DNA of 64,000 nt from Amphiscolops sp. MND2022 (Eukaryota). The notes beneath the pieces were generated by a model. That model did no database searches. It saw only the letters and a program-made list of their open reading frames with translations, and was not told the DNA's origin. The position numbers and the translations under genes are program-made. This document shows positions 1 through 37,951 of the stretch, one piece after another (position 1 is the stretch's first letter; each line of letters opens with the position of its first letter). The stretch lies in assembly GCA_964187785.1 (NCBI GenBank), contig OZ076409.1, positions 27,654,001 through 27,718,000 on the forward strand, given 5' to 3'.

Positions 1-1994
1 AGACGAAAAATGATGAGGGCGAAGCCTTGTTCGTTTTTCTCAGAGCATTGCGAGCCACCTAAAATTCTTTTTCCCGAGCCAGATATTAGAAAACGTTATC
101 GTCAAGCAGTTTTTTGAGGCCCTCCAATGAAATATTGAATAAGTTACTAGCCAATTTTAATTTTCATACAATAGCCACTTATTGGTCATCATTAGTTACA
201 AAAGCCAAAATTTTTCAGAAGAAGGTACGGCCAGTGGCAATACAATAAAAACGTTCCACTAGACCTATCAGGCTAGGAACAAAACTTTTTAACCCGCTAA
301 TTTACTTGAAAACAAAAAAAATTAGCGATTTTTGTTTGTGAAGACCCAAAATGGCCTAACAGACCAAATGTGGTGAGGGCGAAGCCTTGAGCGTTTGTTC
401 CAAAGCTTTCAGAGCTGCCCAAAAACATTGTTCCCGAGCTTGGTGGTACAAAACACTACTGCCAAGACGTTTTTTACCCTTCCCCAATATAAATTAAAAG
501 TTTAACCCTTGACATTCTATTGTTATACATAGACCTGAGTAGAGGACCCCATAGACCTGAGAGTTATAACATCAAAACTAATAATTGAAACAATCCCAGT
601 CCCGTGAATAAAGTTATTACACCTTATTACGTTACGTTTAGAACTATCCCGAACATCTGAGAACCGAAGAATAAAAAGTTCCTAGGGAAAATACGTGTTT
701 TTCATAGGTGTTCCCAGAGTGTCCAAGGTGTAACCTAAAATCAATTTTGAGAGACCTTATTTGGAACCTGCCAGGTTTCGCTCGCCTATTTTCTGTTAGT
801 AGAGAGTACTAGATTACTAACGCCGAAAACCGCGAGTGATTCCAACCAGTGGTTGTTGAGAAATAGCCCAAAACGTGCTATTTTTGCGACCTTATCGGAA
901 CATCATTACGATACACGTACCGGTAAGCTGCCTTTAGTCAAGCAGCGTAATCTGAGTAAAATGGTAAAATGGTCATTCAGCGTAAGTTAGTCAAGACGGT
1001 CTATGCTTCAACGGTGTAGCAAAATCAACGCGCGTAATGGAAAATTGTGTAAGTTAGTCAAAACACGTAATTAGAAAAAAGCGGAAGTTAGTCCAAAAAT
1101 ACTCTTTTTCGTAAGTCAGTCAAAACGTTGACTAACTTCCACTTTTTGCAAATTGAGGGACTCCTATACTTCCGAAAAGTGGAATGTGGTCAAAGTTTTG
1201 ACTAACTTACACCATGTTTATATGCATTCAAAACTCAGTGTTCATTTTAATTCTAATTCGTACCACAGCATCATAAACCAGTCAAAGTAAACAATGATTC
1301 AATAAATAATTAGTTATCATTACTGAGCTCTACCGTGCATAGTACGTATAAACTGCATTCAATGCAAGTTGCACACGTGAACACGTGTGTTTCATCCACG
1401 CATTTACGTGCAAATAAAATACCTTGTAGCTTCTAATTAGTACAATTGATTGATCTGTCAACAGGTTTCCTATTTTAACAAAACAATTTTAAAGCAGCCC
1501 TCATTAATAGTTGCCTAACTAATTTTAATTTTGGCCCCTGTCGTGAGCACAGTCACCGGAATGATTGGTTAACTTGTTATTTTGGTCTGGGTATTTTGAG
1601 CCAGGGTATTGGCAAGGATCTATTTTGATCCCTGTCGTGAGCAACATCAAGAAAAGTTGTAACAAATAATCTATACGAAGTTGAAACTTTATCAAACCGA
1701 AAACAGTAGTTTATGGAATACCGATCTTGAATTATTGAACTAAAAACGAAGTTTGGACCATGTGCCTTATCCTCCCTCAGATAAATACTGTTTCTTATCC
1801 AACAACACCCCCCCCATCCTTCAATTGGTCAAATGGAAAAGAGAATGAGAGAATTGATTTCAAAATTGAATTACTTTGTATCATGGTTAAGCATTAAAAG
1901 CATTGAATAAAGCCACGTGACATATACGTCACGTTACATATACGGTACATGTATGTTTTAAAAGTTTTTGAACGTGTGCAAAGCAGCGGCAAGT

Positions 1995-2210
1995 GGGGAT
2001 GTTGGCGCGGTGGATAAGTCCATCGGATGTGACTGTTAGTCACTGAGTACCACAGGATCGATCCCAGCCATTAGCACACTGGCGAATCGATACATACAAC
2101 TCTTACAAAGATACCCTTCATATTTGGCAGCTCATGTCTCTCGGGCCGAATATTCCACATTGAAGGAATCAGCACCGCTGCAACATCCTTTTTGATGAGA
2201 GGAACTCCAA
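1995..2210 (+). mobile_element. tRNA-derived SINE-like head and body
   Basis: Pol III A box TGGCGCGGTGG (2003-2013) and B box GGATCGATCCC (2055-2065). No clean cloverleaf. Followed by a ~55-bp module repeated at ~2831, ~3300 and ~3383. Confidence 0.6.
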
Positions 2211-2307
2211 GGTGTGACCTTGTTCTGTGCCGCAACTTTGTGTGCCCCAAAAATGATGCAATGATGATTGCTAATGATTGCAATGATTAGAGATGGCGAG
2301 ATACTAG

Positions 2308-2732
2308 CAGGGATGTTAAAATATTTATTTATCGTTTCGATAACCGCGATAAAATATCGGAATACATTATTGTTGCCTAGAAAATATTCAGATTTTTTAT
2401 TGTCCAATAAAAATGAATTCCAATAATCGTGTGAAGCGTGCCTCGATTATCGACCAGTCTAAAAGCGAAACACATTTTGTCGCCAGAAAGAAAGCGATTA
2501 TACCCAATGCATGTTGAAGCCCTCATGTTTCTCAAAGCAAACGAAAAATTATGGGATGCAATATTGGTTTCGAAACTTTAGCAGCTAGAACTGTGAACAA
2601 CGATAATCGAAAATACTTCGATAATTTATTGTTGAGTTTGTAAAAATCCGATAATTTATCGCTGTGTTTGAAAAATATAAATAATTTATTGTTGTTCACA
2701 ATATTATTGCGATAAAATAATTAACATCCCTG
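2308..2732 (+). mobile_element. hAT-derived MITE retaining the transposase C-terminus
   Basis: 12-bp TIR CAGGGATGTTAA/TTAACATCCCTG and 8-bp TSD GATACTAG (2300-2307, 2733-2740). Internal remnant translates as AKHILSPERKRLYPMHVEALMFLKANEKLWD, resembling the hAT dimerisation domain. Confidence 0.9.
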
Positions 2733-3141
2733 GATACTAGTATCCAAATTCTGGCCCCCATTCCTGGCTGCCAATGATATTCATAAAACTCTGACAAAGA
2801 CACCCTTCCTATTCGGCGTCTCATGTCGCCGAATATTCCACATTGATGGTATTAACACCGCCGAAATATCCTTTTTGATGAGAGGAACTTTGATGGTGAA
2901 TTCCCAAATAACATAAGAGCAAATAACATAAAAACGAAATTAGTTTCAAATAACATAAAAATGAAATGAGTTTGACTAAACATAAAAATAAAATTGTTTA
3001 CGAGAAGGTTTTAGCTGTCAAAAGCATTCACAATTCAAAAGATTCACTCAAAAAAGTATGAAAATTACTAATAAACTTTCGTGAGTTCGATTACTTAACC
3101 GGGTATTCGGTTTTATTTTTATGTTATTTGAACCTAATTTT

Positions 3142-3291
<150 letters not shown>

Positions 3292-3535
3292 TGTAGTAGA
3301 AAATCCCACATTGAAGGTATCAACACCGCTGTAACATCCTTGTAGTAGTAGTAGTAGCCTACCCAGTAGGCTACCTTCTGAGAAAATCCCACATTGAAGG
3401 AATCAACACCGCTGTAACATCCTTGTTGATGAGAGGAACTCTTGAATGTAAACTTCCTTAAAAAGTTTAGACTGGTCCGATTAACTGTTTAAACTGATTG
3501 ATTACGCAAAAATAGTGTGAAGAATTGAGATTCTA

Positions 3536-3650
3536 AATTCCAAACTCTCAATTTGAAAAAAATTAAATTGATGGTTTCTAGTTTGTATTCAACTTGAATA
3601 CAAACTAGAAACCATCAATTTAATTTTTTTCAAAGTGAGAGTTTGGAATT
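3536..3650. repeat. Long palindrome, 57-bp arms, 1-nt spacer
   Basis: Centred on 3593; one mismatch seen. Confidence 0.92.
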
Positions 3651-6609
3651 GAGATACAAACATTCTTTTTTTGAAATCTTCTGATCTTTTTTTGATACCT
3701 GTCGTGAGCTTCAGCAAAAACTGTTCCGAAAAATTGTTTTTTCGATTAACTGTACTCTTTTGTACGAAAGAAAGGAAAGTAAAGACAAGATTAAAAAGCC
3801 ATTAGTTTAAAAGTAACCCGCTTTTGAGTTTTGTAAACGAACGATTTTCATAAATCAGGGAAGTTTACAAAAGTGTACTTCCCAAACAAATGAAAGTAGG
3901 TCTCATAATGAAGGGGCGGTTGCTTCATTGAACTTGGTAATTTTGGTCCCTGTCGTGAGCACTTCCTGTAGTCAGATTTACTGTTTATGCGATTTGATAC
4001 TGTGTAGGCGAATCAAGCAGTGTAGTTACGAGTCGGCGTGTGTAGCTCACCAGTAAAAACCCGTAATTGCCAGAACTATGTGTAAATATGAGATGCACAG
4101 TGTAGTTAGTCAAATTGCTTAAACTAGTCATATGGTGTAAGCTAGTCAATTACTGTACTATCCAATGGTGTAAACTAGTCAACGTACGTAGCAAAATCAA
4201 CGAGTGTAACGGCCTATCAATGCGCGTAATGTGAGAAAAGTGTAAAACTTCCAAAAAAAATATTCGCGCTCTGATTGGACAAAAATCGAACTAGCAGGAT
4301 CCTGCTAGTTCGTACCGGCATGTGTATCGTAATGATTGAAATAGTGTTTCAAAGAAAGGTCGAAATCTCTCCTAGCAGGAGTAGCCCAAAACGGATTGCA
4401 CCATCGTGTAGACCGCAAAAAGTTACGTTAGTGGTGTAATTTTCGTAGCGCTACTGTTACTAGTGATCGAGAAATCTTAGCCGCAGTTTTGCTCAAAAAT
4501 GATCCGAAAATGTCGAAAAAATTGAATTTTAGTTGAGCATAGTGCAATACCTCGCAGGTACCCCAACACTAAAATTCTTGCATTTTCGTGCACACGGCAC
4601 TGGATCACGACGATTTGTGCAATTTGAGCAGCCGGCTACTAGCCAAAGCTGAGAAATTGACATTATTGTGATTTTTGACCCGAAAAAGCGGTACCTCTGG
4701 TACATCAAGGTTTTGTCACTTCATATCGCCAGATATTGATCAAGGCACCTCGCCGCTCTGTTTTTCTCTTACGTGGGCAAAAGCTACGCTCGCATGCAAA
4801 TTTTCAGGTGGCTGGGAAGCCTAGAAGGCGAGTTTGACCACTTTTTGAGAATTTCACGACATAGTCAATTTTTCAGTGAACATTGTTAAGTGGCCGTGAC
4901 ACCCACAGGATCAATTTTAGCGCAATCGGAGAATCATTCCCCACGATTCAACCAGTGTATTAGACGGTGTGAAATTTTCAAATCGCTAGCAGCGCTAGAA
5001 GTGATTTTCACCTTCCCCGGAGGTGCATGTTGACGAAAAAATTGTTGATTTTGGGCATTTTTGCAAAAAATCACATAGTTTTTCTCAGTGTACATGCCAG
5101 TGAGGGCCAAGACGACCCAATTAGCATACCGAGCGCCCTCAGGACGTCTTCTTGAATCACTTTGAATAGTGCTAAGCTGACCCCAAGATCTCGGGTCTCT
5201 GAGAAAACCGATCTATGAGACATGGAGGTGAAAAACCGAAAATGGAAATTCGCCTCCCGGCTGCTATCAAAGTCACTTGAGTGCAATCTGTTCATTGAGA
5301 TTACGCATACTCAGTGCCCCATGGGCCCTACGGGTGCTGGAGCGCGTTTATAGGCACTTTTAGAAGTTTAGACTTTGTACGCAGTGCGTCTCAAAACAGG
5401 ACAACAAGTGCAGTAGCGACTACCATAGTCGAAAAAGAACGCTTTTTCTGATCGTGCTACGATCGTAAGGCAAGAAAGCACTTCAAACTCAGTGTCCATT
5501 GTCCTACTCACCCCCAAAGTCTACCGGTAGTCCCTAATTACATTTTTGTTATCACTTATGCTCTCCAGAAACATGGCAGCATGAGTGCCAAACGGACATT
5601 TCAGACAATCTAACATCTGTAGCCAAGCAGACTTCTCAAAAAATCAGTGTTCGCTGCTCAATTCTTGCCTATGGCGTACTTTGGTGCTCGGTACCACAGT
5701 TGCGTGAACCATGTTGATGTGAAAACACCGGACCAGAGATTGGCCCGGGGAGTACCCGTACTCACCCGAGAGAAGTCAACACCAAGCATGATGAAACACC
5801 TAGAGCTTCGAAGCTCTGAGAACTGCTTGGCCAGCGGCCGTGCTTTTAGAACCCGAATGATTGTTCTGGAACTTGTTTTTAATGCCGAAGACTGTTTTCA
5901 TGATCTATCATGCCTGATTTTTGACTCTTATTGGTTCTGCTCTATCACCGTTAGTGACATTGTCCCCTCTTGAGAAGTAGTTTGTTTCCATCTCTTGCAA
6001 ATACGCTGGTGCTTGTACTACCTAGACAATAACTTGAACTGAGCGTACACTGCTGACACAATAGATTGAATAGTTCCTCATTTTTGGTGATATTTTTGAT
6101 TTTTTGAGGCCTGTTTCACCATTGGTGCTAGTTATTGTGCAGTTTCTGTTGGCCATGAACTTTGCAAGACCACAGCTGTTACTTTTATTTTTCGCTTTTC
6201 AAGTGCTATCGTGCATTTTGTAAAACCTAACCTATCAGGCGGACCCCAGGTCAGTGCCAGGCCTATTGTGATGAGTGCTTTTTATGCAGATGCAATAAGG
6301 TGCTAAAAATTTTGAAATTTTGGTGCGAAATTAAAAGTTTGAATTTGTTTTGAATATAAGGCTAAGTGTCTAAAGTTGCTAATATTTTTCCAGTGCAAGA
6401 ATCCGTTGTTGGTGTGGAATCCAAAGAAACCTGCTAGGCTGGCAAAAACTCATGTTTTTGGGCAATAACGTGTTTTTGGGCAACGACTTCCATTTAGATT
6501 CCTGAAGTACCATGTTGCAACAGTATCACTGGATCACTGGATGGTAGCAACCAAGATGTGAACGTCCTCTCTCGTTTGTCGAGGACGACAAACTACGGCC
6601 CGGGGAGGA

Positions 6610-7363
6610 TGTAACGTCCGGCAGTCGGCGTTGCAGAAGTTTTAGAAAATTTCGATCAAAAATTCGAAATGTGCGACATCAAACAAGCACATTCAAGATG
6701 GCCGACCCGGCAGGTATGAAAACCGTAGAGGAAGCAAAAATAAAGGCAAAACACGCCCAAAAAGACCCAACCCACCACCCAGGAATGAGAATGTCCGAGA
6801 TGTCATCACCCAAAAGGCGTGAGAATCAGGAATTCGGCCATCTGACAGCAAAAAGACAGGGTTTTGGCAGAAAAGTGCCAAATGAGACCATTGTGCCCCG
6901 AAGATGAGGAATGATGCCAGAGGCAGGAAGCCGATGATCGCCACCGAACTGTAACTGTATACTTTATTGGGGCCTATCCCCACCTACTTTGACTGTTTAT
7001 AGCGTATTTGGATAATGTTTGACCTACTAGGGCCTCATTTTAGTCCTTATTCACCAATATAATGTATTTCAGCTAGACACCCTTTTGGACCTCGGAAGTA
7101 TGTAGGAAGTCGTAGGAACGTGCTAGAAACCTTAGGATACGTTTTTACAGGCTTGTGGGGCGTGTCCGGACTTTGAGAGTGCCGGCACGTCGCTTCGGAG
7201 CTCTAACTAGAGGAGCCTCCTTAGACGTTAGAAAAGTCCCCCTTGGAGACCATTTTGGGATCAAAAACTAGTGTCTAGGTATGTAGTAAGACAACGGTCT
7301 CCTGTTTAAGCATCCTAGGCATTGTCCCTCTTCCTAGATGTGCGCCGCTAGCCGGACGTTACA
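6610..7363 (+). repeat. 3' LTR of the deleted family A relative (754 bp)
   Basis: TGTAACGTCCGGC...GCCGGACGTTACA, preceded by GGCCCGGGGAGGA. Last ~280 bp closely match 19840-20120. Confidence 0.92.
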
Positions 7364-19400: not shown

Positions 19401-20120
19401 TGTAACGTCCACCAGTCAACACCAAATTTTCGATGAAAAATTCGATCAAGAACCAGAAAATGTGCGAATCAAAATGGCCGACCTGGCAGGTCGTTGAAAC
19501 CCAAAAATGAAAAAAGTGAACACGCGAACAGGAAGAACAACAGGAGATGATAAAGAAAGGGAGCAAAACGACTATTGACATGAAGATTCACACGGTGCAG
19601 AATACGACGAACGCTACCCGGTGCTATGCCATCCCTCTGGGAGAGAAAGCAGAACTGTTCTAGAATGGCATGACTGGATCCCCGAAAATCTACAAACAGT
19701 AACTGTATTCTCACTTGGGGCTTATCCCCCTTTAATTTGTTAATTTATAATGCACTTTGTTATTTCCCCCATGCCTGACCTTCTAGGTCAGCATTTCATG
19801 TCCATAACTGTCGAAATGACATTTTTCGGATAAACATCTTTTTGGACCTCGGAAGTATGTGGGAGATGGCGGGAACGCGCTAAAAACCTTAGGATTTGTT
19901 TTTACAGGCTTGTGGGGCGTGTCCGGACTTTGAGAGTGCCGGCACGTCGCCTCGGAGCTCTAACTAGAGGAGCCTCCTTAGACGAAAGAAGAGTCTCCCT
20001 TGGAGACCATTTTGGGATCAAAAACTAGTGTTTAGGAGTGTAGTAAGACAACGGTCTCCTGTTTAAGCACCCTAGGCATTGTCCCTCTTCCTAGATGTGC
20101 GCCGCTAGCCGGACGTTACA
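19401..20120 (+). repeat. 5' LTR (720 bp)
   Basis: TGTAACGTCC...GGACGTTACA; only two substitutions seen versus 37989-38708. Confidence 0.97.
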
Positions 20121-20136
20121 TCTGGAATAGTTTTTA

Positions 20137-23317: not shown

Positions 23318-26011
23318 ATGGAACGACGTGAGACTAACGCCACCATAAGCGACTTCCATGCCACCAACCCTTTCAGAAGAAGAACGGAAGCCACAGCCGA
23401 ACAAAACGAATGTAGATTAGATTCCGCCATAGCAGCCGTGTTTTCAGAAGTTATGTCTGACTTCGTACCGAGCCAGGAGCAAAACGCGGAGATAGCCGTT
23501 GCCACCAGCCAGCCTAACTCCTCGCGAGCCTCCCCCGACAGCACCAATCCACCGGATGATGCTGAAACCACCACGCAAAGAAAAACATGGCCTCCGCTGG
23601 AAGTCACCGACTACAGTTTGGAAAATTGGCCAAACTCCAACCAAGGGCCCACAGGTGAGCCCAGCATTGCTGATACCCCCAACGAACAAAATGACACTCC
23701 AGTGACTCCACGGGCGGACCCACGGACGGCGGTTGTCGAAAGGAACCCCCGGGTTCCCAGGAGATGACCAATAGCATAGGCGGGAATCCCTTTCGAAGCG
23801 GATATGCGCTACCGGAAGCACCGGCGAAGATGTCGAACAGGCCAGCGGAGAACTCGAAGACAAACATAACAGAGAATCCGTTAAGATACGTTTTTCGAAC
23901 GCCACCCTCGGTGAGACCAAAGATTAATTATGCGAATGCGAGCCGAACATCCCACACGCCAGACTCTCAAGCTAGCGCCGACACCAATCTTGACTCAACA
24001 ATAACCAAAGCAAGAAAGGAAACGCAAACGGTTCGAGAAGACTTTCAAAGTAGCCTAGCTCAGCTAGCTCAAGTCCAGACAAGGCTAGCGCGGGAAAACA
24101 ACGAACATGAGATGCGCGCCGACATGATAATGAGAGACATGGACGAGCTGTGAAAAGGTCTTCTGGAAATGCAAGCGGAAGGGCGACAGAATCAGGGCCG
24201 ACTGGAGGCGTCCATGGCATCTCTCAATGATCTGATTAAACAGAGAGAAACTACAGCGGACGCCCGCATGGCCGAGATGTCCGCAATAATGAGAGAAAGA
24301 GACCGCCAGGCCGACGAACGCATGAAAGCAATGACAAACACAATGCAGCGCCGCGACATGGACTCCAATGTCCGCATGGCGGACTTGATGATGGCAATGC
24401 AAGATTTAACACTGGGCGTGAAAGCAATTGTGTCGCAGACCCCCGCACAGCAAACACAAACGGCGTCACGGGTGCCCCAAAAATACCAGCAGGCCGAGAT
24501 GCCATCTACAAGTGAAGCTCCCCAACCTCACTATAGGACGGTGGCACAGCACACAGTGGAGCCTCCTAGGCCCCCAAAACTAGTGCCACCCGCGACGTAC
24601 AGGCGTGACCTGTCGAAAGCTAGTAAGATGGCTAAGGTAACCCACACGGAGTCACGAGACGCCGGCACAGACCCCATGACTGACCCGCCGTCGTTTGACC
24701 AGTACACTCGCGGGGCATCGACCTCGGGCGACTTTCATTCCGCTGCCGACGAAACGAACACCCGCAGGACCAGCTACTATACGGCCGATTCCAGCGCGGC
24801 ATTCCGCCCACCTGCGCGAACGCAGACGTTCAGAGACTTCGTTCCGCGGCCAGTGGCCACCAGTACGCAGCGCAAGGTGACGACCAAGCGGAACCTAGAA
24901 CAAGGCAAAGGCGAACATAGTGACATTGAAGAGATGCCCTCGGTGGCAGAAGAGGCCCCGGACACACCGAGAACTACCCAACGACAAGCACTAGCAGAAG
25001 CAATATCCACAGCCTTGTCTAAAGGCTTGGAGCCGTTGCTCGCCGTCAAGGAGTCTAAAAACAAGCCCACGAAATACAGAGGAACCCGAGACGGAAATGC
25101 AGATGGGTGGATGATGTTGATGAAACGCCACTTGGAAAAAGCACACCCGAAGGCGACCCCCCTCGATAAAGCATGGACGATAATTGAGTATCTAGAGCAT
25201 GAAGCCAGAGACTACATCACGAATAAGTCCGAAGCCGAGAGGGACACGGATGAGAAAGTATTCGCATTGCTGGCGCGTCGCTTTGGGACAGGCTCCAGCA
25301 AAATCCACATCCAGCAGCAATTTAGAACCCGCAACCAGAATAGCGAAGAGGACTACATGCAATACCTTGATGCCCTCGAGGGCTTGCGTAGTCAGGGTTA
25401 CCCCAATGAAGAGGTAACAGTTCGTCGATACGAAATTATGCAAAGATTCATTGAGGGAGTACGCAACTTTGAACTAAAAAGAAACCTCGCGCTAATGTAT
25501 GCACCGGAACAATACGTGGAGACCCCGCCAACAGTGGAAGCCCTCCGCTTCACGGTACAACAATACTTACGCACGCATGCGTGGCTCCACTCGCTCGGAC
25601 AACTACCCGATGATACCCCCTCCACAACAACAAGCCAACATCCCACAACCTAATCAGTCTCCGGTAGCACCCACGCCTGCCCAAAAAATGCAACAACAAC
25701 AGCCTCCCCAACCAGCAGCATACCAACAACAACCCATGCCACCGGCAGCCTATCGACAACAACCCCAAAGGGCGTGCTTCAACTGCGGAGACCCATCGCA
25801 CTTCGTGGTGGACTGGCCCCTGAAGGACCGTGCACGGAAGCCGGTGCAACAGCAAGTAAACTCCTGTCACACGAACCCGACCGGCAGTTGGGTGTGCCCC
25901 TCTCAGCCACATGGCTTGAACTATGATGTTTTCCCAGCATCTCTGCCAACCCAAGGCACAGTTGCATTCTGCATTAATTGCGGCCGTACTGAGCACTCGG
26001 CGTCGGAATGC
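23318..26011 (+). pseudogene. gag: Gag region (disordered N-terminus, coiled coil, capsid-like domain, two CCHC knuckles), disrupted
   Basis: ATG in GCCATGG at 23318. Frame change near 23760, in-frame TGA at 24151, ACGC duplication at ~25570. Knuckles CFNCGDPSHFVVD(W) and CINCGRTEHSASEC. Confidence 0.8.
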
Positions 26012-29000
26012 ATGGCCTCGGAACAAATGAGTCACGAAGAACAAATCCGTGCAGCGTGGTATGCTCCTTCACCAAGTCAATTCGACGGCCTGAGCCAAGA
26101 CGACCAGGTCCGGGTAATATCGATAGCAGAAGATGGAGGCCCCTCCCGACCTGTAGTAGTCACCTGTGGCGAGAAGCAAGTACTCACCACGCTGGAGGCA
26201 CCCGCCCCAGATTGCACAGAAACACTTATCTCGATACACTTACTTCTCTCGGCCGAGCAAAAATCGCGACCCACGCTGACGCTATCGCAACTAAAGGAGG
26301 AGTTATGCAGAAACGTGAAATATACAATCGCAGCGCGACCGCTCCCGCATTTCGCAAGAGAAGACGAAACGAAACTGGCCCCAATACAGAAAGTCAAAAC
26401 CGTTTCTCCGGTGCCGGTAGCCATCAACGTAGACGGTGTAGACATGAAGTTTGACGCTATCGTAGTCTTAGAAGGTCACTTCCCTCAGGGATTGTACTTG
26501 GGCCGCCAGGAGTTGCGATGTTATAACATCGGAGTGCAAGATGCCCATGGGGAGGCTCGCATTGATGAACGGGCATCCCTGGTAGTTGCCTTTGGCAACA
26601 CAATCCAGGAACCAATACCCTTGTACGGGATGATTGACACCGGCTCGGGTGTCTCCATTCTCTCCCTAAAGGCCTATCAAAAGATTGCATCAGCCCACGC
26701 CTTGAGCCTCCTGCCTTATGACATCCAACTGTATGCCGCCAATGGCAAAACCATCAACACCATCGGCATTGCCGAAAATGTTAGCTTCCAGTTGGGCGGA
26801 CATACCCTTCGAACCAATTTTATAGTCATCGCCGATCACCTAGGTGCGGAGGACTTTTTGCTTGGCAGAAACTTCTTGCGCACTTACAACGTTCTCGTGG
26901 ACCTGACGGCCATGAGGGTCACCATACGAGACCCCAAAGCGCCACGCTACTTCAAACCCGTCCATGAGGTAAGTGACCACGAGCCATCCTTAGTGATATC
27001 CACCGAAAAAGTAGTCCTAGGCCCTTATGAGCGTAAACTGGTGCGAGCCCAAGTTTTTTCTCAAAAGCACAATGAGTACCTTTTCCGAAACGTAATGATT
27101 CGCCCCCTGGGGGTACATAAACGATGCCCCTTTGTTTCAGAAGATACATTGACGTCTGTTGGAGACGAGGGCATTGTTTTCATAGCCGTACGAAACACTG
27201 CCACCTTTGAAAACGTAACCATTCCAACCAAAACTGTCCTCGGTAAGGCAGAACCTACAAACTTTGTGTTGCAACCTGTGGCTGCCGACACGGCAACCGA
27301 AATTGATAAACCTTTGTTTGAACAAGTTAATAGAGTTTATACCGATGAGTGGTTGAACGAAACGAGTTCGGAATATAGTTCTTTTGCTCAAAACTTTTTG
27401 TCCTCTACTGAGATGTCTGAAGAAGGGTTGTCGGAAAGTGAGAAGCGTGCTCGGACTGACCCACAGTTACTAAGACCTATACCAGGTCCAGACCTCTCTT
27501 CTGTCCTTTCTTCATGGGGGGAGGGAGCGAGAGATCAACTAGCAAGCGTCCTGAGCGAGTACGATGATCTTTTTATGAAGCATAAAGCTGACATAGGGAG
27601 GTGCAAAATAGCGAAACATCGTATAGAACTAGAGCCGGAAGCTATCCCGCATAGAGAAGGCGCTCGGCGCATGTCCCCGGATAAGGCGGCGAAGGCTAAT
27701 CAAGAGGTGCGGAATGTGTTGGCCCTTGGCCTAATTCAACCCTCCTATTCACCGTGGGCAAGCGGAATAGTCATGGTCAAAAAGAAAACAGGCGAACTTC
27801 GCTTCTGCTGCGACTTCCGACCGCTCAACGACGTAACGGTCAAGGACGCGTTCCCATTGCCCAGGATTGATGAAAGTCTATCCCGGATAGGCAATGCGAA
27901 AATTTTCACAAGTATTGACCTAGCGTGGGCCTTCTGGCAGATACCGCTAAAGAAGCGCGATAGGAGGAAAACGGCGTTTGCCTGCGAACTGGGCTTGTTC
28001 GAATGGCGACGCATGCCCTTTGGGCTGTGCAATGCCTCAGCCACATTTCAGCGTTCCATTACACGAGCCCTGCAACGGATCCAACAGCGACACGGGAGTG
28101 TCGTCATGGCTTACATTGACGACATCGTTATCGCCACGGAAACCATAGAAGACCACATCGCACGAATCAAGGAAGTATTCGAGTGTCTCCGAGAGGCTGG
28201 ATTCAAGATGCGTGCCGAGAAATGTGACTTCATGCGCACGGAGACAAAGTACCTGGGGCGAGTGGTGTCCTCAGAAGGCATCGAGCCAGACCCCGAAGCA
28301 GTAATCAAAATCCAAGAATGGATGCCCCCAAGAAGCAAAGAGGAGCTTCAGAGCTTCCTAGGGTTCGCGAACTATTACCGAGACTTTGTGCCGTTTCATG
28401 CAGCCAAGGTGCAACCCCTGCAGGAGTTGCTCAAGAAGAGTCAGCATTTCCACTGGGAAGTGAAACACCAAGAGGCCTTCGATGCCGTAAAAGAGGCACT
28501 AGCAAATGCGACCGCCTTGGCAGCCCCAAATGAAGACGGACGGTTCGTGCTCGATACCGATGCTAGTGCGGTAGCAATAGCTGGAATCCTGCACCAGGAA
28601 CAAGAACACAACGGGAAAACTATCTTACGGCCAATAGTCTTCGGGAGCAAGTCCCTAACGAAGACGCAACTGAACTATGGAGCACCCAAGTTGGAAATGT
28701 ACGCAGTATTTAACTTCATAGAGAAATTCCACTCGTATCTCGCAGGCCGAGAGTTCACGCCCCGCGTGGACAACCAGGCCCTATCGTGGCTTAAAACGTA
28801 CTCCATGGACCAAGCCATGATAGGTCGCTGGATAGCCCGTCTGGATCAATATAACTTCAAGACGATCCACCGACCTCGCACACAGCATCGAAACGTGGAC
28901 GGCCTCAGCAAACGGACTAACGACTATGTGCACCGAGAGAAAATCCTTGAGAAGTTACCGGAAGTGAGTGAAGGATTCAACTTCATGACCCAGGAAGACT

Positions 29001-31243
29001 ATGAAGCACTCCCCACCGTGCCATACTTTGATAAACACGGACGCCTAATACCAAACCATCCAGAGCTTCCACCGGAAGCTCGAGCCCAACTCCCACTGCT
29101 GTATATCTTGGGAAAAAGGCCCAAAATGAGCTTGCAAGAACCCCCGGTGAGTGATGCCCCGTGGTACCCCCAAATACAGTGGGAAGCGACACCCACCATC
29201 GATGAGGATCACCGACCGAGTCACATCCTCAGCATCACAACCGGAAGGCCACCGGCACGCCTAGACACTGGAGATCCTGATCCTGTGCTTGAAGGGATGC
29301 CACCCGAATGCCAAAGACAAGCCCACGCCCTCAGAACAGTCGGGACAGAGCTGCACGAACACTTTCTAACTAGACGTGGTCTCAAAGACCTGCACCTAGC
29401 GCAAAATAGGGACGTGCACCTCCTGGCGCTGAGGAAACTCATGAAAGGCGAACCACTGGAAGACACAATATTCCCCGAAGACGTGCAGGACTTCGCGCGA
29501 CGCTACTTCCATCAAAAGAAAGACCTGCTCTTCCTGAACCCAGACGACATCCTCTGCGTCAACTACGTTCCGCAACAACGTGCGCTGCACGTGCGACCGT
29601 GCATGATAGTCATGCCCCAACTATACCAACACGAGATTTTGTATAGGGCGCACGACGAATCGGGACATCAGGGCGTAGGGAAGGTGCTAGCAAGAGTACA
29701 AGAGCGGCACACCTGGCCGGGCATCAAGCGTGACATAGTCAATCATATTAAGCACTGCTTAACCTGCCAGCAAACAAAACACCCTGCCGGGAACCCCTGC
29801 TACCCCTTGCAGAACATTAACAGCAGCAATTTCAACGACTTGGTGCAATTCGACCACCTCAAACTATGCAAAACTGAGTCGGGGAACACCGGTCTCTTGG
29901 TCATGATAGACCACTTCACGAAATTCGCCGAGGCTATCCCGTGTGCCCACGACGAATATGATGCCCAAACCACAGCTAAGATCATCCTTAATAAATGGTT
30001 TGCCAGGCACGGCACTCCAGCACGCATGCAGTCGGACAATGCCACGAATTTCACAGCTGAAATCGCGCAGGAGTTAATGAAGGCATCGCAGGTAACAAAG
30101 GTGACATCCACAGCAGCGCATCCCCGAGGAAATGGACTCGTGGAGAGACAGAACCGAACGTTACTCACACTGCTCAGAGTCTACACATCGCGGCGAATGC
30201 AGGATTGGGATGAGCACATCGATGGAATCCTCGGTGCTTACAATTCAACTAGACACGCAACCACGGGATTCTCTCCCTACATGCTCCAACATGGAGCCGA
30301 AAAATCCATTCCCTTGTCGTTCATCTACCCAGAGTTTGCTGCGCGAGGATTCGATTCCAAAGAAGAATTCGTAGAACACCTTCTAGCCAGGCAACAAGAA
30401 ATCCATGAACTCGTCAGAAGAAATACGCACCAAGCACAGCTAAGGCAAAAGCTAAAGTTTGAACGCCACCGGAAGGCCAAAGCGCACGCCGTAGGCGATG
30501 CGGTGTGGGTATTCTGCCATATCATACCCAAGGGTGGCACCCGCAAGCTGATTCGCGCATGGCGTGGACCGCACAAGGTGACTGACGTGTTGCAGGACGG
30601 ACGATTATATGTGCTAGACACTGGTCAAAAGGTCCATTACGAAAGATTAAAAAAACACGTGCCCGCCCCTTGGGACTGGGCTGCACACCAGCCCTTTGGG
30701 CCGGATCAAAACGTAGCCATCATTGCTGATCCGTATGTAGAAGAAAGCAATGAAGAGATAGCGTCCGACATCTCTCGAGAATCTTTTCTACCAGAACAAC
30801 TTCCGGAAGCGTCGTTCGAAATGGAGCCAACAGGATCGGTTCCACCTCGTACCATTCAGACTCGTACCCAAACGGCCCTCGAGCAAGGAATACCCCGAAG
30901 AAGATTCAGCCACTTCGGATACCCCTCTGACTCAGACTCCGAAAGAGAAGAAAATGAACCGCCGATCCAGAGCCCAGCACCGCCAGTAGTGTTCCCCGAC
31001 TTGGACGACCTAGAACCACTGTACTCCGACCAGGAGGAAATTCAGCCAGCCGCACCTACAAATCTGATACCATCACCCTCAGGGACCTCGGCCCCACTAC
31101 TATCCAATCCGTCCCTGACGGATACCCTGAGTAACTTTCCCTTGTTTGGCCCCCTATTGGAGGACCCAATCGGTCCGATGGAAATTAAACCAAAGTCAGG
31201 AACTGAAGACGAAGAAGAGATAGTCCATCGCAGTCCAAACTAA
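25499..31243 (+). CDS. pol: Pol polyprotein: aspartic protease, RT, RNase H, integrase
   Basis: DTGSG (~26636), MPFGL/YIDD (~28112), DTDAS...E...D RNase H, HDESGH...CLTC zinc domain, FDH/SDN/VER DDE core, WRGPHKV GPY/F motif. Confidence 0.97.
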   Translation: MHRNNTWRPRQQWKPSASRYNNTYARMRGSTRSDNYPMIPPPQQQANIPQPNQSPVAPTPAQKMQQQQPPQPAAYQQQPMPPAAYRQQPQRACFNCGDPSHFVVDWPLKDRARKPVQQQVNSCHTNPTGSWVCPSQPHGLNYDVFPASLPTQGTVAFCINCGRTEHSASECMASEQMSHEEQIRAAWYAPSPSQFDGLSQDDQVRVISIAEDGGPSRPVVVTCGEKQVLTTLEAPAPDCTETLISIHLLLSAEQKSRPTLTLSQLKEELCRNVKYTIAARPLPHFAREDETKLAPIQKVKTVSPVPVAINVDGVDMKFDAIVVLEGHFPQGLYLGRQELRCYNIGVQDAHGEARIDERASLVVAFGNTIQEPIPLYGMIDTGSGVSILSLKAYQKIASAHALSLLPYDIQLYAANGKTINTIGIAENVSFQLGGHTLRTNFIVIADHLGAEDFLLGRNFLRTYNVLVDLTAMRVTIRDPKAPRYFKPVHEVSDHEPSLVISTEKVVLGPYERKLVRAQVFSQKHNEYLFRNVMIRPLGVHKRCPFVSEDTLTSVGDEGIVFIAVRNTATFENVTIPTKTVLGKAEPTNFVLQPVAADTATEIDKPLFEQVNRVYTDEWLNETSSEYSSFAQNFLSSTEMSEEGLSESEKRARTDPQLLRPIPGPDLSSVLSSWGEGARDQLASVLSEYDDLFMKHKADIGRCKIAKHRIELEPEAIPHREGARRMSPDKAAKANQEVRNVLALGLIQPSYSPWASGIVMVKKKTGELRFCCDFRPLNDVTVKDAFPLPRIDESLSRIGNAKIFTSIDLAWAFWQIPLKKRDRRKTAFACELGLFEWRRMPFGLCNASATFQRSITRALQRIQQRHGSVVMAYIDDIVIATETIEDHIARIKEVFECLREAGFKMRAEKCDFMRTETKYLGRVVSSEGIEPDPEAVIKIQEWMPPRSKEELQSFLGFANYYRDFVPFHAAKVQPLQELLKKSQHFHWEVKHQEAFDAVKEALANATALAAPNEDGRFVLDTDASAVAIAGILHQEQEHNGKTILRPIVFGSKSLTKTQLNYGAPKLEMYAVFNFIEKFHSYLAGREFTPRVDNQALSWLKTYSMDQAMIGRWIARLDQYNFKTIHRPRTQHRNVDGLSKRTNDYVHREKILEKLPEVSEGFNFMTQEDYEALPTVPYFDKHGRLIPNHPELPPEARAQLPLLYILGKRPKMSLQEPPVSDAPWYPQIQWEATPTIDEDHRPSHILSITTGRPPARLDTGDPDPVLEGMPPECQRQAHALRTVGTELHEHFLTRRGLKDLHLAQNRDVHLLALRKLMKGEPLEDTIFPEDVQDFARRYFHQKKDLLFLNPDDILCVNYVPQQRALHVRPCMIVMPQLYQHEILYRAHDESGHQGVGKVLARVQERHTWPGIKRDIVNHIKHCLTCQQTKHPAGNPCYPLQNINSSNFNDLVQFDHLKLCKTESGNTGLLVMIDHFTKFAEAIPCAHDEYDAQTTAKIILNKWFARHGTPARMQSDNATNFTAEIAQELMKASQVTKVTSTAAHPRGNGLVERQNRTLLTLLRVYTSRRMQDWDEHIDGILGAYNSTRHATTGFSPYMLQHGAEKSIPLSFIYPEFAARGFDSKEEFVEHLLARQQEIHELVRRNTHQAQLRQKLKFERHRKAKAHAVGDAVWVFCHIIPKGGTRKLIRAWRGPHKVTDVLQDGRLYVLDTGQKVHYERLKKHVPAPWDWAAHQPFGPDQNVAIIADPYVEESNEEIASDISRESFLPEQLPEASFEMEPTGSVPPRTIQTRTQTALEQGIPRRRFSHFGYPSDSDSEREENEPPIQSPAPPVVFPDLDDLEPLYSDQEEIQPAAPTNLIPSPSGTSAPLLSNPSLTDTLSNFPLFGPLLEDPIGPMEIKPKSGTEDEEEIVHRSPN

Positions 31244-32989
31244 TGCTCAACACAACCCGATACCACGAACCGCAGAGGACGGCCTCGAGGCCGACCACCA
31301 GGTCGAGGACGACCCCGCGCCATACCATCCAGTAGAACCACGACATCGTCGCGAACCCAAACCACACGATCCAGAAGAGGCCCTAGGACAAGAGTGAGCA
31401 CTCGTGCACCCCCTCGAAAGCTAGACCGAGCAATGACTCTACCAGAGATACCCGAAAGCCAACAACCACCGGAGAACCAGAATTCTGAACCGAGACCGTC
31501 ATCGCAAACATCACGATATCAACTGCGAGCTAATAGAGCACCACGATACAAGTGTGGAACCTGTGGTTCCCGCAACTGTAGTTGCGTCAAGCAACTGACT
31601 CGCGATTCACCGGACAACCGATTGGCCCGGGGAGCGGTAGTCCCTGCCAGGGACCTCCTAATGGCCAGGGCACATTATCATCCACAACATGAGATCCTGA
31701 CTGTACAAGCCCAGCGAGAAAAAGTTGAGGCCCCTCCGCTAGTACACCATCTAATCATCACGGTAGAGAAAACATTCACTAGTGTGGAGCGAGAAGTGAT
31801 ACCACCGCTGGAAGAAACACTCAGAGCAATGCACGCGACATCTCCCTCCGACTGCCCCACTTACCGATTCAAGGAATGGACACCACCTCACCGAGGCGGT
31901 TTAGAGTTCACCCTACATGCCATCATACCGCCCTTGCCACCCTCAATGACGTTCGGCGAGCTAGCGGAAGAGGATAGCAGCCCGGAGATGGTTCGCTGTA
32001 CCACTGCACACCAACTGTGGGAGAAATATCGCATTGCCTCCCCGCCGGGAGACATATACCAGCCCACCAATGGATGGTGGCTACTCGTCACTTCTCTCGA
32101 CGCAACGACATTGGTGTCTCCCACAACTCTATTAATGTGCTTAGAGAGCTTGCGCACTGTAACAGAACCTGAGAATACGCTCTGTTTCCACATGGCCGAC
32201 ATTCATCGCGGCAAGTTCCTAAGCCAACATTGGCTACAATTAATAGCGGTCATCTTCTGCCGACAGGCGAAGATACACTTCTTGGATCGGCAATCTTATA
32301 CGCCGGAAAAACCCGTCACGGTCAACGAAGCACTCTCGATAGCACACGATTGGTCATCTACCAACATGGGAGATAGACCGCTACGCCGCACCGTCTGGGA
32401 GGACCGCAAAGCGATCTTACGGCATTTAGCACCCCAACCTAATGATGACCAGAGCAATACCACCGGCAAATGGCTCATAACCCAGCCCAAGACCAGACCG
32501 AACAACCTGCCTTGGATAACTTATGCCAATACAGATATCCTGCAGGCCCCTGGCACTGTGATACTGTGCTGCCCTGCAGATTTGCTCTCTTACTCTTCCA
32601 CCACCCGTTATGTTATTCGCGAGTACGGTCAGGAAAACATATTTCGCCTAAGGCCGGCAGTTGGCACCGCAATTCGCTTAGTCCGCTCGCCAACTGCACC
32701 CTGGAATAACGAAATTTTCCTTCTATGTACAAGAGCATCGAATAAATACCCACTCTTACATGAAGTACTCCATGCGTGTTTGACAAATTTGATAACCCAG
32801 CTCCATCGAAACCACATTACCAGAATCCACTTGCCCATATATGATCCCGAGCGATCAATGAACCTCCTACCAGCCTGGTACGCCACGCTACGCGACCACT
32901 TTGCAGACCATAGTATTGCAATAATCTTGCACGATCGCGTCTATGTCTCGATAGCATCGGTGACCTCAGTCGATTTTGGCGGTAGTTAA
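31244..32989 (+). CDS. In-frame extension after integrase: AT-hook cluster, CxxC-CxC motif, two degenerate macrodomain-like repeats
   Basis: Same frame as pol, separated only by TAA at 31241-31243. RRGRPRGRPPGRGRPR at ~31271-31318. WITYANTDILQAP...IFLLCTR...ITRIHLP resembles TARG1/OARD1. Confidence 0.72.
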   Translation, partial: CSTQPDTTNRRGRPRGRPPGRGRPRAIPSSRTTTSSRTQTTRSRRGPRTRVSTRAPPRKLDRAMTLPEIPESQQPPENQNSEPRPSSQTSRYQLRANRAPRYKCGTCGSRNCSCVKQLTRDSPDNRLARGAVVPARDLLMARAHYHPQHEILTVQAQREKVEAPPLVHHLIITVEKTFTSVEREVIPPLEETLRAMHATSPSDCPTYRFKEWTPPHRGGLEFTLHAIIPPLPPSMTFGELAEEDSSPEMVRCTTAHQLWEKYRIASPPGDIYQPTNGWWLLVTSLDATTLVSPTTLLMCLESLRTVTEPENTLCFHMADIHRGKFLSQHWLQLIAVIFCRQAKIHFLDRQSYTPEKPVTVNEALSIAHDWSSTNMGDRPLRRTVWEDRKAILRHLAPQPNDDQSNTTGKWLITQPKTRPNNLPWITYANTDILQAPGTVILCCPADLLSYSSTTRYVIREYGQENIFRLRPAVGTAIRLVRSPTAPWNNEIFLLCTRASNKYPLLHEVLHACLTNLITQLHRNHITRIHLPIYDPERSMNLLPAWYATLRDHFADHSIAIILHDRVYVSIASVTSVDFGGS

Positions 32990-33320
32990 GAACACGTCTC
33001 GCTCTCTCCTTGGCAAATCAGGCCACTGGCCTTTTGCATTGCCTTTCGTAATTTCGAAGCACCTTAAATTTTAACAACGATGCACCGATAAGCGCAAGTT
33101 TTAGTAGCAACCACATAAAATTTTTTTAACCTTGTGTTTGTGTGTTCGTCCTAAAAAGTTTGACTGACCACCCATTTATGTAACGTTTTATCCCCAACTG
33201 TGACCTGTTTTTCAGTTTTGTCTTGTTGCCTCGCCTCTGCGCGGCTCCCCCACTTATCACGCCAAATCAGTCTTGCCATCACAATCTTCGGTGCTAAACA
33301 TTCCTTTATCATTGTTTCCA

Positions 33321-36300
33321 ATGGACCCATCTGCGCGACACCGCCTGCCTGCACCCCAGAACGCTGCGCGTGCCCAACCATCCACAAGGAGCGATCCACC
33401 TCCAATGATGAGTGAAATAGATGGTCGAGTCGACCAACTAGCTCTTGTCCAAGACACTCTACTAAACGGAGCGACACCCACAATGATCGCTGGCTTTGCC
33501 ATGATCATCGCCCAAATCCAAGCTCAGGCAGAGTACCCTGATGTTAGCCTCACCATCACCAGCCGGGTCGGCCCGATAGAACGCTCTGCCACCTTTCGCG
33601 ACGGTACCTGGCAAGGGTATGACTTGACCCACAGCCTCATAGATCCTCGCTCCCACTTAGTCTATGGAGAGCCTACTAGGCCTCCCATGGACCAAGAGCG
33701 ATCACTGCGCATTTCGCAATCGGCATTGCAGACACAAACTACGACCCCGTTGCCCTCACCACACCCTGTGCAATTCAGCTGCACACTGCCAATCATGCCA
33801 CCCCCAGTGCTAACACCGCCCATGCCTCTGGCATCGGAAGGCATCCGACTACTCACAACCCCATCTTCTAACTTCATGCTTCCATCTACCTTTCAGGGGG
33901 GAGGGGTGCAAGTAGACAATACAACAAGCGCTACCCTGAGCGAAGAACAGCCCAGGAGAACGGTGACGTTCAAGGACTCATATGAAGAATTGACTCAAAC
34001 GTCCTCCAGAACCGAATCACAAGTCTCGGAACCTCCACAAGTCTCAGAACCAGCCAGCCTAGTAGGCTTCCAGATGGACCCACAATTCCGAGAACGTCAG
34101 CGAGAACAACAGAAAGCTGAAAGTAAGGCGGCCAACACCGTGGTAGACCTCCGGGAGGAGATTAAAGCTGGAAAGCGAGCTAGAGAGGCGGCCGGGCAAG
34201 GTAGGCAATCGAGCTCGACCAGTATCCCGCAACCCCCGTCTACCTCGCCCACACAACCAGAAATCAGGAGACCTAGAATAACGCACGAATTCCTCACAAA
34301 TGCAGAAAAACGACAGCTAGACATCACTGCACGCGACGCACTGCGTCTCAAGCGGGAAATACCAACCACGACGTCACCAGAAGACCCATTACAACAGAAG
34401 TTCGAGGTCGCTACAGGAACAGGGGACCTTGCCAGTAGACAGAAAATAGAAAAAGCCACGGTAGGGGTACTCTACAATCGCCCCGTCAAGAAACCCGTGT
34501 TCACTCGGGATGGATGCCCCCCCTGGTTCAACCGCATGCGGGCAGAACTGGAGAGAGTGGATTCAACATACATGCGTGTTCCCGACGGCTTCCTCCGACA
34601 GCGCCCAGGCCGCTTTGACGAAGACCGCTTGCGAACCAAGAACTATGCGAGGGACCCCATTACAATCCTGCCCATGGGAAAGGACCTCCTACAGAAAACC
34701 AGAATAGCCTTCTTCGTCGACTCGACGATAAAGTCTTCTTTCAATTCCCACAATACCCTCATGGACGTCAGAATACTGAACATGCCCTGTACTACACTGA
34801 ATGAAATGGCAGAGGTGACTGATAAAATGTTCACCCAAGCGGGAACAGAGACTATCCCACTACCTCCGTTGTTGGTATATTCGAATGTGATAGACCACCT
34901 CGCTCTGCGAGGGACCCTGGAATTCTTCCGGCCAGACCATGAAAGGTTTACCGAGGGGTTCGTCACTGACGAGGTAACTAACTACGTGGAGACGATGGCC
35001 AATATTGCCCAAGCTATGCGCAGAAAGAAAGCCACCACTGGGACGGTGTTTATGTCACCTCCAGGCTACGTGTACCTTCCTCGGACCCTTCAGCAATTCT
35101 TGTACCTAATAATGGAGGCCGCGTACGCGAGAGATCTGGCTTTCTACATTGTGGCCCCTAATTTACGCATCAGTAACAATAGCTGGCGCCCCTGTGAAGC
35201 CTCATACCCAGCCTTCATTGCCGAAGTCTCCAAGGCCCTCCAATCATACGTCGGTTACCGCGGCAATTCCCAAATGATAGTAGATGAAGCAACAGCGTTC
35301 GATTATGGGATGGAAATGGCTCGTCGATCAATGAACGAGCGTGGAGACCGAATAGTGAATAATCCAAATGAAAATGAGCGCAATAACCTGGTGGATAACC
35401 TCTGGTTTGAACGCCGGGACGAATCGACCATAGACGAGAAAACGCATGAGCCCAAGTTCCACAAAGAACTCACGAGTCTGATGAAGGAAACCGAAACGAT
35501 TCAAAGTGATAGGAAGAATTCCTCTATCTTCCCTATAACACAAATATCGTTGGACGCTGAACCTGGGCAAAGATCACCCACATTAGCCATGCTGTTGATA
35601 CAGGCTCAAGATATTGTACGAAGGAATGCTCAAGAGCCAACACACACATACCAAACATGGCACGACCAACTGCGAGAACCTCTGGGCCAAGTCGCGGACC
35701 AGCTAGGCATATCATTTCCCGTATTCCTCCATAACATCTCTCCCTTCTGGCTTCCTTCCCTAGTACAGGCCGAGTACGGCCTGGATGAGCAGCGAATGCG
35801 ACTATACATGGAGTCCATGGAAAGAGCCACCATTAGTGAAATACTAGCGTATTTGATGGCCGTGGGGTTGACCATGATGTACCGAGGACCGTCAGCCCTC
35901 ATACAAAAGTTCGTGCTCAACAAGGGAGGCTCAGCCCTGTTCAGCTTCCTGGTCTTTTCGCAGAATCAAAGGAGTTGGATATCTGCGCTCATTAAAACTC
36001 TGGACCCAGCGGGTTCCTTGAAGTTAAAAGCGCAACTAGATTTGAACATTCAAGCACTTCTAGTGTGGATTTATTCCACTTGGGTCAATGTTTCTGGCGT
36101 TATGCATCCTCTGGATGAGTGCCCAGCTATTAACCGAGATCCCAGTCAGCTTCCAGGGTTCCTGTTCCCTACACAAATAGCAACGTTGATGCTCGTGGAA
36201 ACAGAGGACCTGATCCCACTCATTGCTCCTGTAATCTGGCCTATCTTCGGCGCAGTTATGGCCTTGCGCTATCCAACGCAGGCCTTGCGAGTGGCAGCAG

Positions 36301-37405
36301 TAGCCCCATCCCTCTCGATTCTACACTTCGTGACCTCTAATGGGCCCCTTCAGGGTCCCACCTATCAATCAGTGATACACAGCTTTGCCAACTTTCGACC
36401 TCCCATGGCATACACCATAATCAAAGACCGCCAACAAGTGGAGCACAACTATCTTACGTTGATCAAAGCGCGAGCACGCAGCTCGCTCCCATTGCCAATG
36501 GAAATCCACCCGGTCGTTTGGCTACATACCCCCTCAATCCAAACAATGGAGCAGTGGCAACGTTTGATGGGTGGGACGTGCCAGTTGTCCTGCGTATCTT
36601 GAGAGCGATTATCCAAAGATTGGGTGGTCGCCGAAAAGGAGAAGAACCTACTAGGTTATTATATCCCTATGCGTGTGACACTTCCAGAGCATACTGTGCA
36701 AGAGCGGATCCCCGTGAGCATACCGCCAGAATTTTAAATACCATTACGTGTTGGGCCCAGCCGGAACTCGTAGACCTCGCTATCCACCAGACCTTTCAAC
36801 AGCTGCCAACGACTATTCCAACAGTAGCAAGAGAACCAAGCAGGAAAGATCTGCCCGTGAGCACTGACGTTCCCAGCAACCCGCGCATTGCGCTAGAGAT
36901 ATTCGTGCGCCTGCATGGTCTCCAGCGAGAACATACTCGAGCTGTAGGCGAAGAATACGTTAGGGGAATACAAACATTCAAGCAGCTATTCACCCAGCAT
37001 GGTCATCAAGAATTGGCGGACGGACTGCCGAACTTAGAGCCAACCGAAGCTATCCCAGGGATCAGCGACTTGAGCGAAGCTGCCTCTGGCAGCTCTCGCA
37101 CCGTCCTTCCCACACCCCACCTCACTCAAGACACCGATGAATTATTGGTATAAGGGGTACAAGACGATGTCCCAAACGTCATGCCACCATCAGAGGAGCC
37201 TATGACCGACAACAACTTCACGCTCTCTGATGCCACTACTCCTGTAAGAGACGAAGCGGAGACTAAGATCTCAAACATGGAGGCAACGGACATAGAGTCA
37301 GAGCTTAACAACTTACTGACCATAGATGAAGAATACCAAAATACAGTGGACACCATGGGCAGCACTTCCATGCAAGAAGCCCCACAGAACCAGCTGTTGG
37401 AGTAA
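33321..37405 (+). CDS. Large extra ORF3 (~1350 codons if one frameshift near 36520-36600 and TAA 37151 are repaired), with an SGNH-like domain
   Basis: 1109-aa ORF, an overlapping 211-aa ORF and an in-frame 74-aa tail. Motifs IAFFVDS, ILNMPCTTL, LLVYSNVIDHL, VFMSPPG. Confidence 0.75.
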
Positions 37406-37951
37406 AGGAGTCCTCTGGACCCTCCAAGACCGTTGGAATACAATTAAGCACAAAAGACCTTATCATCAAAGCATTGATGCCAACTCTTGATTTTAGTTGT
37501 GCTACACCATCTTACTGGTGCTGAAAACATTCGGTGCAATAAAGCTTGATTTCAAAATTTTGTTTGATATATATTTTACTATGCTACCAATGCAACAATG
37601 CAATATAGCTACATCCTCTGGGCGGGTCCCGGTTCGGTGCCCTCCCCTTTTGATTTGAATTTAAAACTTCTACTAAGCCCAAAAGTTGTTGTTACTCACT
37701 TGGCCGCGCAGGGGTCCAATTTTAGAAAAAGAAATTTTACCTTGAACTGAGTGATTAGTGAAAAAACTTTTTTTAAAAGATCCGACTGTAGAGTTTTTAA
37801 CCTAGAAACCCGTGCTTTTTGAATTTGATGGCTTTAGAGTGCTAAACATGCAGTAACGAAACGAAAAGAATAGTAATGTGAAATCAACATAGTCTTGATG
37901 TAAGACCTTTTCTGTAAATCTCAGAGTACCCTTTGGGTGCGAGCATCCTCT

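Follow-up and report, generated by a model that had tools for sequence, protein, structure and literature searches.

Central polypurine tracts (PPTs) are known from several groups of retroviruses and LTR retrotransposons. In foamy viruses, element D is described in the passages cited here as a perfect internal copy of the 3' PPT within pol that leaves a gap, and as lying in CAS-II, a segment required by vectors (PMC6669543, PMC5035957). Central PPTs inside the coding region are likewise described for Ty1 (PPT2), HIV-1 and the copia element EVADE, and the purpose of such tracts, for which nuclear import, protection from editing, speed or recombination have been proposed, is unsettled in the sections cited (PMC7197481, PMC2829016). 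The upstream PPT copies of Sireviruses are presented as exact, without the dinucleotide plus TG attachment site and without the inverted repeat of the terminal PPT (PMC2829016). Among Ty3/gypsy elements, one extra PPT is recorded for Athila4 and Calypso (PMC2829016) and for Bongo3 (PMC3605345), and Ty3, the model gypsy element, has no central PPT according to the relevant portion of PMC5371799. PPTs that contain pyrimidines exist, as stated in an excerpt of PMC3185511. An exact-word search of the open-access literature turned up nothing on central PPTs kept by non-autonomous LTR elements.

The window, that is, the whole 64,000-nt stretch of DNA that was analysed, holds a full-length and a short LTR element, each with an internal copy of its own 3' PPT (Table 1). 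The full element is a 19.3-kb Ty3/gypsy LTR retrotransposon with TG...CA LTR ends and the pol order PR-RT-RH-IN, and the best solved-structure match of its RT-RH part is Ty3 (E 2e-107). It resembles Ty3 (Metaviridae) in this match and in domain order and differs from it in its length, its long Pol tail and an extra ORF, whereas among the carriers of central PPTs HIV-1 is a retrovirus and Ty1 and EVADE are Ty1/copia elements. Two in-frame stops, at 24151-24153 and 31241-31243, and a frame change near 25.5-25.65 kb interrupt the copy in the window; the first stop and the frame change were read by eye from the frames. The stop at 31241-31243 is absent from the Pol of relatives; homologs read through it, so that the separate "ORF3" of the initial annotation is in fact part of Pol, namely its tail; P0083 and P0095 combine integrase domains and the tail in one protein. 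The tail consists of an AT-hook-like motif, a Cys motif, a linker and a predicted macrodomain fold, in this order. In its structural model, about the first 100 residues are of low confidence (the PPT-encoding motif corresponds to residues 65-67, in a block with mean pLDDT 36) and are followed by two alpha/beta domains; the best fold matches of the model are the macrodomains of TARG1 and DarG (E 1e-7, TM 0.83 on target). Nothing significant was found for the tail in Pfam, and the literature searched gave no clear description of a gypsy Pol tail containing a macrodomain. The AT-hook-like stretch, GRPRGRP, and the Cys motif (CxxC...CxC) lie at 31244-31600, upstream of the internal PPT copy, and occur in all three main Pol subfamilies.

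Table 1. Features of the full and the short element (positions in the window)
Feature	Position	Strand	Remarks
5' LTR, full element	19401..20120	+	720 bp, 2 differences from 3' LTR
pol, full element	25496..32989	+	PR-RT-RH-IN, then same-frame tail
Internal copy of 3' PPT 11-mer, full element	31624..31634	+	candidate central PPT
Two alpha/beta domains after integrase	31740-32940		predicted macrodomain fold
Extra ORF	33204..36602	+	1132 codons stop to stop, no Pfam match
3' PPT region, full element	37948..37988	+	11-mer at 37976-37986, then GA, then TG of LTR
3' LTR, full element	37989..38708	+	
5' UTR part, short element	201..903	+	77% identical to 20765-21476
Nested insertion	904..4334	.	terminal inverted repeats, apparent 2-bp AT duplication, splits 5' UTR
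Remaining alignable 5' UTR, short element	4337..5342	+	91% over 4337-5041, 63% over 5042-5342
Open frame through island	5665..5976	+	common to 67 protein clusters
Retained Pol-tail island	5679..5752	+	corresponds to 31561-31634; 15-nt exact core 5738-5752
Internal copy of 3' PPT 11-mer, short element	5742..5752	+	candidate central PPT
3' PPT region, short element	6569..6609	+	40/41 identical to full element
3' LTR, short element	6610..7363	+	TG...CA

The 11-mer GGCCCGGGGAG occurs in exact form on the plus strand at four places in the window (5742, 6597, 31624 and 37976), as initially annotated, with no fifth match at up to one mismatch anywhere in the 64,000 nt; its chance mean is 0.28, and none of 100 shuffles gives four copies. 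Two copies are the 3' PPTs, each ending two bases (GA) ahead of the TG of the 3' LTR, and the other two are internal, one in each element. In both elements the internal copy is identical to the 3' copy at 11/11 positions and on the same strand, and this identity ends two bases short of the TG of the LTR. An order-2 Markov model predicts 0.002 exact internal copies for the 17,850 nt that make up the interior of the full element. There the copy takes in the final base of a Leu codon, the Ala-Arg-Gly codons and the base that opens the codon after them. It lies past the integrase core, in the 3' part of pol and at 63% of the length of the element; the distance to the 3' PPT is 6.35 kb, and 855 nt in the short element. 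Both kinds of site are devoid of a long purine run, with six consecutive purines in the internal copy and eight at the 3' site. In both elements the 3' PPT lies within an inverted repeat, whose upstream arm in the short element pairs with the PPT/LTR junction, whereas the internal copies do not. The lentiviral cPPT/CTS flap involves an A/T-tract termination sequence about 100 nt downstream; after the internal copies of the two window elements no conserved tract of this type was seen, the A5 tract at +85 in the full element and the T4 tract at +92 in the short one being non-homologous. The 2-nt GA spacer before the 3' LTR is mirrored by TC after the 5' LTR, which would fit trimming of two bases by the integrase; the most tRNA-like primer site, however, seems to begin 16 nt past the 5' LTR, which complicates this view of the cDNA ends.

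As a 3' PPT copy located past the integrase core, the internal site is like that of foamy viruses and also of lentiviruses; unlike the foamy cPPT, it lies in the tail ahead of the macrodomain fold and is not all-purine, and 74 nt are kept by the natural non-autonomous family here, compared with about 1.8 kb in an engineered foamy vector. It differs from the HIV-1 cPPT/CTS, Ty1 PPT2 and EVADE in its position at 63% of the element and in being a candidate, assigned by sequence, after which no conserved termination tract was found. As in Sireviruses, the internal copies lack both the spacer dinucleotide plus TG and the inverted repeat. However, the extra copies of Sireviruses, Athila4, Calypso and Bongo3 sit close to the 3' LTR in a non-coding linker or overlap the stop codon of gag-pol, whereas the full element has one such copy, in frame and 6.35 kb upstream. 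The site would thus work like a known kind, the central PPT. It stands out by lying in frame within the Pol tail of a gypsy element, by the depth of its conservation and by its retention in a natural family without genes.

The short element runs from before base 1 of the window to 7363, its 5' end lying outside, and has an estimated length of about 5.1 kb once the 3.4-kb inverted-repeat insertion is removed. The window copy possesses a 3' LTR and PPT and no detectable genes. Its identity to the full element is 98% over the 41 nt that precede the LTR and 61% and 85% in the two LTR halves; in windowed tests against the full element, the flanks of the island (approximately 340 nt upstream and 810 nt downstream) hardly rise above noise. 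Apparent colinearity between the UTRs of the full element and the segments 5343-5670 and 5990-6470 was considered and rejected: it is significant globally, but windows of 110-120 nt mostly equal shuffles, and among them only 6473-6592 reached 2/200 shuffles. Several other observations concern this layout. The segment 4337-5041 matches 21477-22181 over 705 nt at 91% identity, with a 206-nt exact run, compared with 52-77% elsewhere in the UTR, and could either stem from a recent exchange with the helper family by recombination or mark a strong cis element, for example a packaging signal. A GC-rich motif of about 21 nt (6233-6253 and 37619-37639) precedes the 3' PPT by about 360 nt in each of the two elements, within 3' UTRs that are otherwise barely alignable. 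The repeats of the nested element at 904-4334 start with CATTACG, and it contains a long GTA microsatellite (approximately 3143-3291) and internal repeats.

The retained island aligns without gaps to the Pol tail of the full element (50/74 identical), with a local score of 52, whereas the highest score reached by any of 60 Markov-simulated queries was 42; the seven next-best interior-versus-interior matches score 27-31, within the null distribution, except for the continuation of the 5' UTR. When eight frames of the full element were compared by tblastn with 5000-6609, the island was the best match (E 2e-4) and the next had E 0.052; a Pol-tail profile of 85 sequences found the island alone in the six frames of 4337-6609 (E 1.4e-6), and profile-profile comparison returned solely this stretch. 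By these sequence comparisons, the island is the only detectable coding relic of the short element, with no other coding fragments at similar identity. It had been annotated as retained, which holds, although its extent is about 74 nt from near 5679 and not about 60 nt from 5695. A longer coding remnant, suggested by a resemblance seen by eye about 40 codons past the motif, failed profile, HMM and DNA tests, 105/300 shuffles scoring as well. A randomly placed relic of 74-310 nt would contain the motif 0.5-2% of the time. The island is closest to the subfamily of P0023/P0024 (18/24 amino acids, versus 12/24 for the Pol in the window), so some of the "conservation" shared by the two elements goes back to coding ancestors, in keeping with the codon-like pattern of mismatches (10:4:10 by codon position, p=0.06). 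The short element, initially taken for a deleted copy of the full one, derives instead from another subfamily. In the adjacent Cys-motif region two residues, including one Cys, are changed in the short element; the motif is unchanged.

Whether DNA or protein is constrained at the site was judged from relatives seen as proteins, whose codons were deduced from amino-acid variants: 287 Pol-type proteins yielded 141 covering the region and 113 distinct 32-residue segments. Protein, alignment and DNA-pattern scans of viral, metagenome and prokaryote contigs produced no locus of a relative. At least two residues of A-R-G are in register in 103 of the 113 segments (A in 99, R in 97, G in 94), a filter that itself demands two of the three, and A-R-G is kept down to a subfamily of about 35% identity with an unrelated flanking linker; in the first tally, linker columns -12 to -3 are variable (1.35-3.2 bits). 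The ten remaining segments comprise decayed, deleted or frameshifted copies (P0081, P0107, P0108, P0346, P0350 and P0351) and the distant P0130, P0143, P0178 and P0257, which are without A-R-G in register, two of them showing a similar tripeptide one residue earlier. In the 103 segments, A-R-G is preceded by L (87), G (12), F (2), E (1) or M (1) and followed by A (63), V (31), E (6), D (1), L (1) or T (1); the following residue, chemically mixed, is GNN-coded in 101/103, versus 30% in the linker, a count that stands for a handful of independent changes, as homologs share ancestry. For the six Arg variants (W, W, L, L, P and Q), CGG is the sole Arg codon one step from all of them, and GGA or GGG is one step from 8/9 Gly variants; a control Arg at -18, encoded by CGC in the window, gives C and H variants instead. 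The motif is also read in other frames in frameshifted copies from at least four subfamilies (P0108, P0350 and P0045 by pattern search, P0344 and P0351 by eye from the listing). Given L-A-R-G, codons would spell the PPT with a chance of 0.005 under the codon usage of this pol, in which CGG, implied in several subfamilies, makes up 11% of Arg codons. As the next residue is GNN-coded and decayed and frameshifted copies point to the same codons, the constraint looks nucleotide-level, and the proteins of relatives suggest a motif conserved in other copies. The suppression of synonymous variation that the initial annotation proposed as a check does not reach significance in the one DNA pair available, that of the window: third positions are identical in 4/4 core codons and in 10/20 elsewhere (p=0.09).

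The island-spanning frame retrieved 67 protein clusters with about 124 member sequences at 64-92% identity, and the short element therefore belongs to a multi-copy family, whose other copies are known by this internal frame as proteins. The frame is probably not a real gene: when its approximately 130 codons were considered as such, the Cys motif proved decayed, and Trp and Met columns vary like neutral DNA. All 67 clusters carry the island, a count biased by a query that itself includes it. The five motif residues are intact in 49/67 copies; 58/100 columns are likewise without shared variants, and 5806-5830 is as conserved as the motif. Most motif variants are spread over copies whose mutual similarity does not exceed the background, a pattern consistent with decay after insertion. 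Three copies sharing one Gly-codon change form a weak group in the tree (support 0.78), and a copy with an altered motif may have moved. The evidence on whether the short family needs the site is mixed. Two parts of the initial rationale are not supported: that the site is needed in cis, given that among the copies of the short family the motif has decayed as much as the DNA around it, and that it would be useful for a 19-kb genome, which cannot account for retention in an element of about 5 kb whose site is 855 nt from the 3' PPT. A search among short proteins for other independently deleted families gave 38 matches, 29 of them new and, by eye, resembling Pol fragments.

We favour, though with a modest degree of confidence, a reading in which the internal copy acts as a central PPT, priming a second plus strand, and still serves the short family. 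That it is a working central PPT in the autonomous elements, whatever its role in the short family, appears likely. The central-PPT reading of the initial annotation gains from the perfect and apparently conserved PPT copy downstream of the integrase core and from the multi-copy family that carries it; the cis requirement and the argument from length are not supported. In the proposed mechanism, the 11-mer would be the plus-strand primer of the element family, and RNase H would spare both copies during minus-strand synthesis. The 3' copy would prime strong-stop DNA, ending two bases before the LTR, and the internal copy a downstream plus strand extending to the 3' PPT (over 6.35 kb in the full element, over 0.86 kb in the short one), so that a gap or flap would be left in linear cDNA at the internal site. 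Selection for priming would then fix codons in the otherwise variable Pol-tail linker, and the non-autonomous family, borrowing Pol in trans, would keep a site that improves its cDNA and shed other coding sequence. In Ty1, PPT1 alone was reportedly found by Heyman et al. in 1995 to be sufficient for transposition, which counts against the central-PPT reading. The run of six purines, the failure to see a conserved CTS-like tract, the decay of the motif within the short family and the four distant segments without A-R-G in register weigh against it as well.

An alternative that we regard as rather improbable grants the autonomous elements a working central PPT and makes the copy of the short family a by-product without advantage, either since the priming site was a template-switching hot spot where the deletion ended or as part of a hitch-hiking island. 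Detectable homology does stop within about a codon of the 3' end of the 11-mer, the predicted initiation point, and the lack of excess motif conservation inside the short family, the small size of its element and the 855 nt to the 3' PPT all suit a by-product. Presence of the island in every cluster found, with the bias stated above, speaks against it, as does the distribution of differences between the window copy and the nearest Pol subfamily: four of the five non-conservative-looking ones fall in the first half of the island, and its last 12 residues differ at one position only.

It is unlikely, in our estimation, that the island is instead another cis-acting RNA signal for packaging, Pol binding or dimerisation, comparable to foamy-virus CAS-II, with the PPT copy serving as part of the signal or as a protein-binding site and not as a primer. 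Conservation reaches upstream of the 11-mer (CACCGGAC), a small hairpin using CCGG is possible in both copies, the motif contains the palindrome CCCGGG (self-duplex -14.3 kcal/mol), and foamy vectors, in the passage cited, require a pol-derived CAS-II that ends in the cPPT (PMC5035957). Nevertheless, folding is mostly no better than in shuffles (z +0.28, -0.68, -0.53 and -1.97), the palindrome lies in a stem and not in a loop, no match was found in Rfam, and the stop of identity two bases before the LTR would be left unexplained. A long-range duplex between the island and the 3' UTR was also considered and dropped, as it is confined to the full element (7/500 shuffles, compared with 119/500 for the short element).

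We give little credence to a protein-level reading, in which L-A-R-G serves the Pol tail as a cleavage site or linear motif and owes both its resemblance to the PPT and its survival in the short element to coincidence. The codon-like divergence of the island and the neighbouring Cys motif, which is as conserved as A-R-G, agree with it; yet two coincidences are required, of 0.005 for the codons and 0.005-0.02 for retention, the flanking residues (Leu or Gly before, Ala, Val, Glu or Asp after) are chemically mixed and all fit flanking G bases, and the rare CGG codon is implied across several subfamilies. A splice junction at the site is unlikely, the upstream pyrimidine content being only 35-50%.

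A deeply conserved in-frame copy in a gypsy family, together with a family devoid of genes that retained this one site near its 3' end, would help to separate two views of central PPTs, that they shorten the synthesis of a long genome and that the discontinuity itself is needed, and a single genome would provide hundreds of copies to test both. It is conceivable, if doubtful, that internal priming is near-obligatory in this gypsy lineage independently of genome length, with the gap or flap needed for maturation or integration of the cDNA. If true, the 5-kb non-autonomous family had to keep the site and would parallel, in nature, the minimal vectors built from foamy viruses or lentiviruses. A more speculative extension is that the TARG1/DarG-like domain modelled from the sequence encoded behind the site might strip host ADP-ribose marks from the discontinuity.

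Further observations concern the full element and other repeats. The most tRNA-like primer-binding site appears to start at 20137, about 16 nt and not 2 nt past the 5' LTR, and this candidate (region 20121-20154) would correspond to tRNA-Arg; no tRNA gene was found in the window. The extra ORF gave Atlas feature matches scoring only 0.75-0.76, including SGNH/GDSL clusters, which serve as a lead only, and a 270-codon frame (36341-37153) overlaps its end. The full element is flanked by TAA on both sides (19398-19400 and 38709-38711), as is a minus-strand solo LTR at 59938-60633 (60634-60636 and 59935-59937); no perfect 4-6-bp duplication was found around either. A 481-bp direct repeat of 98% identity (9941-10421 and 13539-14019) encloses ORFs of 289 and 355 codons, neither with a Pfam match, and is possibly another young LTR-type or other mobile element. 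An inverted-repeat element of about 540 bp is present in two copies of 90% identity (47906-48442 and 60644-61194), and a 360-bp direct repeat of 96% identity occupies 61963-62323 and 63641-64000.
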